A DNA stretch of 24,147 nucleotides, taken from positions 1 through 24,147 of the forward strand of contig NW_021824236.1 in NCBI RefSeq assembly GCF_006345805.1. Direction: 5' to 3'. The DNA comes from Octopus sinensis (Eukaryota). Of the stretch, positions 6,386 to 8,833 are shown in pieces (positions within the stretch are counted from its first letter, which is position 1; each line of letters opens with the position of its first letter). The translations under genes were made by a program, and so were the position numbers. The notes under the pieces are model-generated. The model was not told the origin of the DNA. It searched no databases and worked only from the letters and a program-made list of their open reading frames with translations.

Positions 6386-6832
6386 AAACAGACAGTCAGA
6401 CAGAAATAAGGAGAGATTGAGAGAGAGAAAACTAGAGTGATAACCAGCTGGTACTCGTTGAAATCTCAGTTGAATGGAGCAAAGTGAAAAGAAGTTTCTT
6501 ACTAACGCAACGACTGCCTGGTAAGGAAATAGACCCACAGCCTTAAGAGCGTGAGTCGAACACCATTAGCCTCACCGCTAGGTTACGTGCGTTCACAGCG
6601 ATATATACGTATATCGTGAATATGCATTAAATTTTTTGATTTCATTTTATTGGTCCAAGATCGTAGTAGCATGTCGAATGAGAAATAATAATGATAATAA
6701 TAATAATAATAATAATAATAATAATAATAATAATAACAATAATAATAATAATAATAATAATAATAATAATAATAACAATAATAATATAATAATAATAATA
6801 ATAATAATAATAATAATAATAATAATAATAAT

Positions 6833-7086
6833 AACATCCTTAAACAATCCTTATTCAAGGACCTTTTGAGCGGGATGGGCTACTCAACCTGAAGAAAATT
6901 CTAACTGGGCCCCACCTGCAAGGTCATGTGCTGTTTATCTTGATATGAGATCACCATGTCGCGCACATATGGTTGTGATGCATGTGCCTGGTGTACCTTT
7001 ATCAGACGGGTAGTCATGATGGGTATATTGGGCTTCGTATATTTTACCCCAGTGTCACTTTGATGGCATGAACTGCTCTCTCACTC
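6833..7086 (+). mobile_element. (AAT)n-embedded non-coding element, copy 1 (5'-truncated, ~254 bp)
   Basis: Matches the 3' part of 20594-21151, ends …actgctctctcactc(AAT)n, (AAT)n on both sides. Confidence 0.85.
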
Positions 7087-7223
7087 AATAATAATAATAA
7101 TAATAATAATAATAATAATAATAATAATAATAATAATAATAATAATAATAATAATAATAATAATAATAATAATAATAATAATAATAATAATAATAATAAT
7201 AATAATAATAATAGTAATAATAA

Positions 7224-7624
7224 TAACCAGTTTAGCATGTCCCTTGGTGGCTGACGATATGTGTATCTCTGATCACGAGCAGAAGTAGTGGGGGAGCATC
7301 ATAGTCATGTGTTGAGAGGGATTCTTTGGGGTTTGAATAATTCGCCTCTGGAAACATGGGTGGTTCTTTCAACATCCTTAAACAACCCTTATTCAGGGAC
7401 CTTTTGAGCGGGATGGGTTACTCGACCAGAAGAAAATTCTAACTGGGCCCCACCTGCAAGGTCATGTGCTGTTTATCTTGATATGAGATCACCATGTCGC
7501 GCACATATGGTTGTGATGCATGTGCCTGGTGTAACTTTATCAGACGGGTAGTCATGATGGGTCTATTGGGCTTCGTATATTTTACCCCAGTGTCACTTTG
7601 ATGGCATGAACTGCTCTCTCACTC
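7224..7624 (+). mobile_element. (AAT)n-embedded non-coding element, copy 2 (~400 bp)
   Basis: Starts taaccagtt…, same 3' end, (AAT)n on both sides. Confidence 0.85.
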
Positions 7625-7641
7625 AATAATAATAATAATAA

Positions 7642-8042
7642 TAACCAGTTGACCATGTCCCTTAGTGGCTGACGATATGTGCATCTCTGATCATGAGCAG
7701 AAATAGTGGGGGAACATCATAGCCGCGTGTTGAGAGGGATTCTTTGGAGTTTGAATAATTCACCTCTGGAAACATGGGGGTTTCGTTCAACATCCTTAAA
7801 CCACCCTTATTCAGGGACCTTTTGAGCGGGATGGGTTACTCGACCAGAAGAAAATTCTAACTGGGCCCCACCTGCAAGGTCATGCGCTGTTTATCTTAAT
7901 ATGAGATCACCATGTCAATCACATATGGTTGTGATGCATGTGCCTGGTGTACCCTTATCAGACGGGTAGTCATGATGGGTATACTGGGCTACGTATATTT
8001 TACACCAGTTTCACTTTGATGACATGCACTACTCTCTCACTC
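7642..8042 (+). mobile_element. (AAT)n-embedded non-coding element, copy 3 (~400 bp)
   Basis: Same start and end as copy 2, followed by (AAT/AAC)n. Confidence 0.85.
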
Positions 8043-8833
8043 AATAATAATAACAACAACAACAACAACAACAACAATAATAATAATAATAACAATAATA
8101 ATAATAATAATGATTATATTAATAATAATAATATATCTAAGAAGAAGTGGTTTTTATCATCGAGATTTTGTTCCTAAGTGGAATATCTCAGATTTTCGTT
8201 CACGATGTGTCCTACTTAATCAGGTCGTAGCTTTTAAATGAAATAAAATAAAAATATAAAAAAACTGTGAGTTCATCATATGTAAACGCCATGTTCAGCT
8301 TTAGATATGCTAGTTTGTTGATAATGATGGGTTCAAAGTTAATCTTTAGAAAGGAGTTAGTTGGTCTCAAGTTCGTCCTAGATGTCTTAGCTGGGTCTGG
8401 GTTGAGCTGACAACAAAAATGTCATTTACAGACGATCGTGAAATGGAGTGGGCAGTATGTAAAGAGAGATGTTTTGCATAACGGACTTCTAGCAGACGGC
8501 TAATGATTGCCTGGTTTCTTTCGTTTCCTAGAAGTAGAATGCAGAAAAACAATTTAACAGCTGTTTTAAGATACCACCATGTTGGAAGTTATTGGAAAGC
8601 GGAATGACTCTTTTAAGGTAGTGATCATCTTTATTAGCAAAGATGCCTAAAGCTTCAAGAAGGGTATCACTACAATAGTGAGTTACGTACATAGATACAC
8701 ATACATACATACATACATACATACATACATACATACATACTACATACATACATACATACATACATAGTCCATAAAATTATATATTGTATGTGTGTATATA
8801 TATATATTATATATATATATATATATATATATA

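Follow-up and report, generated by a model that had tools for sequence, protein, structure and literature searches.

The stretch considered here, the first 24,147 nucleotides of the forward strand of Octopus sinensis contig NW_021824236.1 (NCBI RefSeq assembly GCF_006345805.1), is referred to below as the window. It contains five copies of a short repeat embedded in (AAT)n microsatellite arrays, together with parts of two Dong-type long interspersed nuclear elements (LINEs) that end in the same kind of array. Our analysis of the window and of the whole genome points to a discrete, non-coding retroposon of 556 bases that lies in (AAT)n tracts in one orientation genome-wide, and is likely copied in trans by the reverse transcriptase (RT) and endonuclease of co-resident Dong-type LINEs.

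The window was studied by multiple alignment of the five stretches, BLAST with the full-length copy, Tandem Repeats Finder (TRF) for arrays, ARAGORN, Rfam and Pfam. Five co-oriented copies had been proposed in a first-pass annotation of the letters alone, and both the alignment and BLAST recover all five (c1 to c5, with c4 starting at 19961). Copy coordinates (q) are positions on c5, the 558-base full-length copy that served as the BLAST query; all copies, flanking arrays and Dong fragments lie on the plus strand. An (AAT)n array at 6684..6834 (TRF period 3, 50.7 copies, 94% matches) is the target tract upstream of c1 (6833..7086), a 5'-truncated copy that covers q304-558 with 90% identity in BLAST and is 1.6% from the family column majority. 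The array at 7087..7226 (46.7 copies, 98% matches) is both the tail of c1 and the target of c2 (7224..7624; 92% in BLAST), which is 5'-truncated to q157-558. Copy c3 (7642..8042; 90%) is truncated to the same interval, with c2's junction in the alignment, and is followed by an (AAT/AAC)n array at 8043..8133, seen with TRF and in the sequence itself.

The remaining copies lie beside LINE remnants. A decayed, 5'-truncated copy (17260..19887) of Dong-A, a family with RT and a restriction-like endonuclease (RLE) and a candidate source of the enzymes, ends ...GTCAAAC followed by (AAT)n; over 2,694 bases it is 89.5% identical to a full-length copy, and it matches Pfam RVT_1 (E 2.5e-25). Its tail, an (AAT)n array at 19888..19963 (TRF), is the target of c4 (19961..20405), a copy truncated at about q111 and mutated at its 3' end, of which BLAST aligns 19961-20398 with q111-550 at 90%. 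An (AAT)n/(ATG)n array at 20406..20593 (TRF) separates c4 from c5 (20594..21151), which is full length at 558 bases, lies 5.6% from the column majority, and carries an (AAT)n tail at 21153..21201 (16.3 copies, 100% matches). Directly behind it, in the same orientation and the same tract, come the last ~380 bases of a 5'-truncated Dong-B copy (21203..21584; 95% identity to the Dong-B tail), ending ...AAAACTACTG then (AAT)n.

TRF places an AAT-type array before every one of the five copies, and arrays flank each on both sides, as the first-pass annotation had described. Its common 3' end point also stands, since the same base precedes (AAT)n in all five: c1, c2 and c3 end ...CTCTCTCACTC then AAT, and the ends of c4 (...GCTCATCCCTC then AAT) and c5 (...CTCTCTAACTC then AAAT) are forms of it altered by point mutation. 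The 5' starts differ, as had been claimed, across c1, c2, c4 and c5; c2 and c3, however, have one identical 5' junction. Divergence of the window copies from the family column majority ranges from 1.6 to 6.2%.

To place this pattern in the genome, the 2.72-Gb assembly (13,516 contigs) was searched with exact 22-mers from each end of the element, each with its reversed sequence as a control; young copies give a unit length of 556 bases. The 3' end GGCATGMACTGCTCTCTCACTC has 12,683 exact matches, divided almost equally between strands (6,349 and 6,334), and the 5' end has 6,700; both reversed controls gave 0. The five-copy pattern of the window is therefore far beyond chance (12,683 against 0). 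Judged by the ratio of 5' to 3' ends, about half of the copies would be full length. Among the best 40 genome matches to c5, 39 span q1-8 to q553-558, and 36 run exactly from q3 to q558. All begin TGCCCTGATGCAG, and what precedes this start is in nearly every case either (AAT)n itself or short re-copied 5' pieces with (AAT)n in front of them. Of the copies picked by the 3' end only (the first 30 places on contig C1), 15 start at q3-5, two (L032 and L038) keep the 5' end with internal deletions, and the rest start at q10, 55, 59, 73, 82, 89, 91, 110, 110, 112, 220, 387, 399 and 405. Fixed 3' ends with ragged 5' ends are the mark of target-primed reverse transcription, and a constant 3' end combined with a full-length 5' end and scattered truncations is the pattern that this process gives when its template has a genuine 5' end.

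The family contains both young and older copies. Young copies lie within 0.4-1% of the family column majority, and the 63 distinct full-length copies in loci fetched from the genome, a set biased towards the best matches, lie 0.4%-10.6% from it (median 2%). Near-identical words of the element also occur in public sequencing runs, contigs of guessed or unknown kind, under six coded organism labels; of the four runs examined, each from a different label, three contain it in great abundance and the fourth contains it as well. The element family is thus common to several related hosts or labels.

The association with (AAT)n holds genome-wide. An exact AATAATAAT directly follows 10,152 of the 12,683 3' ends (80%). 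The possibility, raised at the outset, that most copies lie outside (AAT)n is thus not what is seen. Directly before the 5' end, an exact AATAATAA[A/T] is found in 3,029 of 6,700 cases (45%), and of the first 100 such 5' ends listed, 94 read AAA. A triplet of C/G, non-A and C/G (S-B-S) precedes only six of the 6,700 5' ends, where base composition gives a rough expectation of several hundred for random flanks. All six are arrays of re-copied 5' pieces, themselves behind (AAT)n, and none enters an open reading frame (ORF). In the 30-locus sample, AAT is directly 3' of the element in 29 loci and (AAT)n-type sequence directly 5' in 25-26. At the 5' flank the exceptions are L042, which has another fragment of the element there, L053, with an (ATT)n array, and L050 and L060, whose flanks are unrelated; L052 is borderline. 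The flanking repeat reads AAT on the element's sense strand in every case; as expected of a microsatellite-targeting element, the copies thus sit in one kind of microsatellite and in one orientation.

The 5' end itself is marked by a second feature. Nine of the 67 copies that reach it in the fetched loci are preceded by one to five direct repeats of their first 15-30 bases, usually joined by A, AA or TAAA, and longer units of up to 83 bases also occur. Such stutters are found at L010, L015, L021, L022, L024, L044 and L074, as well as at L137, L138 and L141, and their unit ends cluster after GCAGTA(CC), CAGGC and GTGGCTC. Template switching at the end of a template is a behaviour of R2 enzymes, and we infer that the stutters arose by repeated template switching of the reverse transcriptase at the template end. 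The re-copied pieces start at the same base as full-length copies, and this base therefore marks the end of the template.

These 5' data bear on a reading in which some longer, autonomous LINE has the repeat as its long 3' untranslated region (UTR) and is commonly truncated to 556 bases; the first-pass annotation had offered this as the UTR of a third family. A fixed 3' end with ragged 5' ends would also be expected from a LINE 3' UTR. However, the number of exact 5' ends relative to 3' ends, the share of them directly behind exact AATAATAA[A/T], the near absence of S-B-S (confined to re-copied 5' pieces) and the start of the re-copied pieces at the template end all speak against it, and we consider it very improbable. 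In about half of the copies the start is at one and the same base, immediately after (AAT)n, and no examined copy of this kind enters an ORF. Nor do longer copies continue into an R4/Dong ORF, an outcome that would have reduced the repeat to a 3' UTR: this was seen in none of the 67 copies reaching the 5' end. A site-specific non-autonomous retroposon, as first suggested, accounts for the fixed 3' end, the ragged 5' ends, the discrete full-length form, the (AAT)n on both flanks and the single orientation genome-wide.

The shared start of c2 and c3 requires a different explanation. Their junction (AATAATAAC then CAGTT) is rare, its 21-mer AATAATAACCAGTTGAGCATG having only nine exact genome matches, and two of these nine form a second tandem pair 455 bp apart on contig C6 (98627518 and 98627973). 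So few junctions rule out a truncation hot spot at q157, which we had considered as an explanation of the pair. TRF calls c2 and c3 together a 418-bp tandem repeat (7207-8053). Because the common 5' junction is so rare, c2 and c3 are most likely a single insertion duplicated later in tandem rather than two insertions, although only three private substitutions are common to both. The window would therefore record four insertions, not five. Tandem pairs with one rare truncation point, at periods of 418 and 455 bp, suggest that the (AAT)n tracts on either side exchanged unequally once the insertion had taken place.

It might be asked whether such exchange explains the whole family, which would then owe its spread chiefly to events in DNA (unequal crossing-over, or segmental duplication from one (AAT)n tract to another) rather than to reverse transcription, as a satellite-like repeat with a microsatellite spacer. 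The c2/c3 and C6 pairs are what this predicts, and flanking (AAT)n would favour unequal exchange. Against it, the element is equally frequent on both strands, and the best matches and fetched loci lie on at least 20 large contigs; copies differ in their truncation points but not in their 3' end, and flanks beyond the tracts are unrelated. We therefore give spread at the DNA level hardly any weight as the main route.

The element itself is non-coding. The longest ORF of a young copy is 69 aa and lies on the antisense strand, in agreement with the earlier observation that no credible ORF is present. The absence of transfer RNA (tRNA) boxes was likewise borne out, with ARAGORN finding no tRNA in the whole window. 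Rfam gave no match inside the copies in a whole-window scan (E up to 1) and only chance-level matches for the element alone (E up to 10). The repeat is short, non-coding, retroposed and present in high copy number, as is a classical short interspersed nuclear element (SINE), and neither ARAGORN nor Rfam found in it the head of one (tRNA, 7SL or 5S with internal promoter boxes). The sense strand has three T4 runs, at 77, 334 and 512, and no AATAAA. The three T4 runs and the lack of a Pol III head in these searches would argue against an origin of the element RNA from RNA polymerase III (Pol III).

The predicted structure of this RNA differs between strands. The sense fold of a young copy (L014:1501-2056) has a predicted energy of -192.9 kcal/mol (z = -3.78), which none of 100 dinucleotide shuffles equalled; the antisense fold has z = +0.96. 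This asymmetry fits an RNA intermediate of the AAT-tailed strand that may be under some selection for structure. Most of the body of the element is predicted to pair as one long imperfect stem, and the first 26 bases, next to which the stutters lie, form a predicted hairpin.

Three LINE families, here called Dong-A, Dong-B and Dong-C, use the same tracts; all end in (AAT)n and follow (AAT)n. Dong-A and Dong-B are present in the window and Dong-C was found beside other copies of the element. Each has the CxxC...HxxxxC and PD...D...K motifs of a restriction-like endonuclease downstream of the RT, and they are 49-53% identical to one another over ~280 C-terminal residues. Full-length Dong-A is ~4.4 kb, with frames of 1,286-1,313 aa in three fetched copies (L073, L074 and L075). 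In a search with the Dong-A RT, 122 of 51,977 first-look candidates were scored, all of one family, and eight of the 122 lie within open frames of 1,189-1,313 aa. Judging from these intact frames of ~1,300 aa, Dong-A may still be active. A 1,272-aa Dong-A ORF aligns with R2 proteins of known structure over a span that extends from the RT into the endonuclease region at the C-terminus (9nl3, E 5.4e-28, and 9dou, E 9e-28, both over residues 505-1245; 8gh6, E 1.7e-18). The ORF also matches Pfam RVT_1 (E 4.8e-28), and it reaches 24.0 bits for zf-RVT, below the 27.5-bit cut-off. In these LINEs an RT is thus followed by a zinc knuckle and an RLE at the C-terminus, with a relationship to R2, as expected of the Dong/R4 clade.

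The name Dong rests here on the (TAA)n target and on reports of Dong-R4 elements in octopus (PMC13282606; PMC9115989), rather than on an RT phylogeny. Dong elements have been described as targeting (TAA)n in insects, molluscs and cnidarians (PMC3812793; PMC7998251), and in a survey of Octopus vulgaris repeats, five families of 'Dong-R4' LINEs are reported as recently active (PMC13282606). The 3' UTRs of Dong-A, Dong-B and Dong-C are unrelated to one another (loci L002 and L029 for Dong-B, L041 and L055 for Dong-C). Elements can therefore evidently use this target and tail without sharing primary sequence.

Copies of the element and of these LINEs are close neighbours. Among 59 loci picked by the element only (L002-L060), 30 have a Dong-A, -B or -C fragment within ~1.5 kb, and when these fragments are grouped by family and strand, 32 groups are co-oriented with the element and three are opposed. 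Such a bias is as given by two kinds of element that need one strand of one tract. Dependence on Dong is likely in view of the common target, tail, orientation and neighbourhood, as distinct from any shared sequence. A possible mechanism is as follows. A source copy would produce an RNA ending in (AAU)n, and Dong protein would nick the (ATT)n strand of a tract. The RNA tail could then pair with the nicked DNA, which would prime reverse transcription, and early stops would leave ragged 5' ends. At the 5' end of the RNA the enzyme would often re-copy the first 15-83 bases before the complementary DNA joins the upstream (AAT)n. Each insertion would leave (AAT)n on both sides, renewing the target.

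Several points weigh against Dong as the source of the enzymes. The element has no similarity to full-length Dong-A, to 1.47 kb of the Dong-B tail or to 1.33 kb of the Dong-C tail (blastn with word size 7 and tblastx; best E 1.6), and therefore, for these LINEs, the usual tail shared by a SINE and its LINE is absent. The last 20 bases are A-rich in all three Dongs and C/T-rich in the element. No perfect 7-bp P1 helix of the hepatitis delta virus (HDV) type was found within 140 bases of the element's 5' end, and Bombyx Dong has an HDV-like 5' ribozyme (PMC3774820). Rfam has no ribozyme match on the element either, a weak negative as Rfam is equally silent on the 5' end of Dong-A. Composites of Dong-B and the element, described below, give no proof of co-mobilisation. 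A LINE carrying the element's own tail could also have been missed, given the five recently active Dong-R4 families reported in octopus (PMC13282606) and the small part of LINE diversity sampled. The objection from unshared sequence is weakened by the Dong 3' UTRs, which are unrelated even to each other.

If these points were given full weight, the element would be mobilised by a LINE other than Dong-A, -B or -C that carries the same 3' terminal sequence: one more Dong family, perhaps, or a LINE of another kind tailed with (AAT)n. The rule that a SINE and its LINE have a tail in common would then apply here too, and the co-residence of Dong would be a by-product of the common target. In favour of this are the lack of similarity to the three families, the contrast between their A-rich ends and the C/T-rich end of the element, the sampling of RT candidates from a single family, and the number of recently active Dong-R4 families in the octopus survey (PMC13282606). 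However, none of the 30 loci picked by the 3' end runs upstream into LINE sequence. The two loci where similarity ends without upstream (AAT)n (L050 and L060) have unrelated flanks that do not look coding, and a census of the ends that abut (AAT)n in the fetched loci found only the element, Dong-A, -B and -C and other short repeats. Mobilisation by another LINE is thus unlikely in our view, and copying in trans by the Dong enzymes remains the explanation we prefer.

Two more specific relationships with Dong were considered and rejected. An origin by internal deletion of one of these LINEs, as in short internally deleted elements (SIDEs), is contradicted by the comparisons: the 5' and 3' UTRs of Dong-A are unrelated to the element, and so are Dong-B and Dong-C in the 3' parts compared. 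As no similarity was found, the element is neither a SINE with a shared tail nor an internally deleted derivative of these LINEs. BLAST found no sequence shared between the element and the rest of the window, including the 3' ends of both LINEs there, as the first-pass annotation had noted. Co-mobilisation with Dong-B by read-through (3' transduction) was suspected from three loci that read Dong-B, (AAT)~8 and then the element. Such composites make up 17 of 40 scored candidates. Their linkers range from 18 to 57 bases, the truncation points of Dong-B and the relative ages vary, and the element is sometimes older than the LINE, all of which fits independent insertions in either order.

The tracts themselves have more than one kind of occupant. 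The genome contains 76,837 junctions of the form C/G|(AAT)7. In the first 30 of these, interruptions within an array make up about 12. Dong-B supplies six ends and Dong-A two; two more junctions come immediately after the element's own end, three have another short repeat in front of them and five have other sequence there. In this small sample, retroelement tails account for 10 of the 18 junctions that are not interruptions, which suggests that they bound many AAT tracts. At least two other short repeat families adjoin (AAT)n (L008, L018, L020, L060 and L133; L116 and L132); the end of one reads ...GCCAGCTCGCTGCCTTAA, and the other contains a tRNA-like GGTTCGATTCC box. AAT tracts are common to several non-autonomous families.

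Some arrays change strand. At 21585-21736 of the window only a few bases separate (AAT)n from the (ATT)n into which the array turns, and the copy at L053 is preceded by (ATT)n but followed by (AAT)n. Such switches may be the meeting points of insertions in opposite orientations. Elsewhere in the window, a decayed RT fragment on the minus strand (10827-11369; weak RVT_1) is enclosed by long inverted repeats of 168 bases (96%), 145 bases (92%) and 119 bases (93%), the whole spanning 9249-13305; this structure is unrelated to the 556-base element.

Microsatellite-specific LINEs are already known, as are non-autonomous partners of LINEs specific for ribosomal DNA (rDNA) or small nuclear RNA (snRNA) genes. 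Bombyx Dong, DongAg and DongBg, of the R4 clade, are RLE-type LINEs that insert into (TAA)n (PMC3812793; PMC7998251). The element resembles them in its target repeat, (TAA/AAT)n 3' tail, orientation-specific insertion and 5' truncations. It differs in being 556 bases long, in having no ORF and in having no sequence in common with the three LINE families compared; it is a passenger rather than a Dong. The R2 SIDEs are non-autonomous, 28S-specific derivatives of R2 that arose from full-length elements by internal deletion; the essential ends of R2 RNA are its 5' ribozyme and its 3' protein-binding sequences (PMC3414825). Like them, the element is non-coding, would use the enzymes of a site-specific RLE LINE and lies in that LINE's target. 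Its ends, however, are unlike those of full-length Dong-A or the 3' parts of Dong-B and Dong-C, and no ribozyme fold was found in it; its copies number in the thousands and are dispersed, whereas R2 SIDEs are confined to rDNA.

Two other partnerships offer a comparison. SINEU elements of crocodilians reportedly form a target-specific pair with LINEs of the Tx1 clade, with snRNA-derived heads and tails in common with the LINE, and insert into genes or other repeats. There too, a short non-autonomous element takes over the insertion-site specificity of its partner. The target of the octopus element is instead a microsatellite, and it has no recognisable head or shared tail. In the eel pair UnaSINE1 and UnaL2, Kajikawa and Okada, cited in PMC4758252, are said to have shown in 2002 that 3' tandem repeats are needed for recognition, alongside a conserved 3' stem-loop common to the two. 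In both systems priming would involve a short tandem repeat at the 3' end of the RNA; the eel pair, by contrast, has that common stem-loop, and its insertions are not confined to a matching microsatellite. The octopus element appears to work like a SINE or a SIDE, yet by its sequence it has the defining features of neither.

In the literature searched (subscription papers, Repbase and Dfam lay outside the search), we found no Dong-dependent or (TAA)n-specific SINE or other non-autonomous element. What is new relative to that literature is a high-copy, non-coding passenger that is confined to a microsatellite and has no shared tail. The family could already be included, without a name of its own, in the 893 'unclassified SINE' families of the octopus repeat survey (PMC13282606). 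Repeat libraries that file the family under 'unclassified SINE' overlook its target rule, and microsatellite markers based on AAT tracts will have common flanks.

A broader scheme can be put forward only tentatively, and we regard it as rather doubtful. The element would be a LINE parasite without borrowed sequence, the Dong enzymes accepting any structured RNA that ends in (UAA)n, and only the microsatellite would match template to target. With each insertion rebuilding (AAT)n on both sides, tracts, Dong and passenger could sustain one another, and a large share of the genome's AAT microsatellites would owe their origin or their length to this system, the tract possibly acting as a TATA-like upstream element for the next round of transcription.

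Should dependence on Dong prove true, the element would be a natural test of the template needs of RLE-type reverse transcriptases, setting a tail repeat and a fold against a specific sequence, and this would be relevant to targeted insertion, for which R2-type enzymes are currently used. Dependence on Dong would also help to explain the abundance of AAT tracts and of stacked repeats in this genome.

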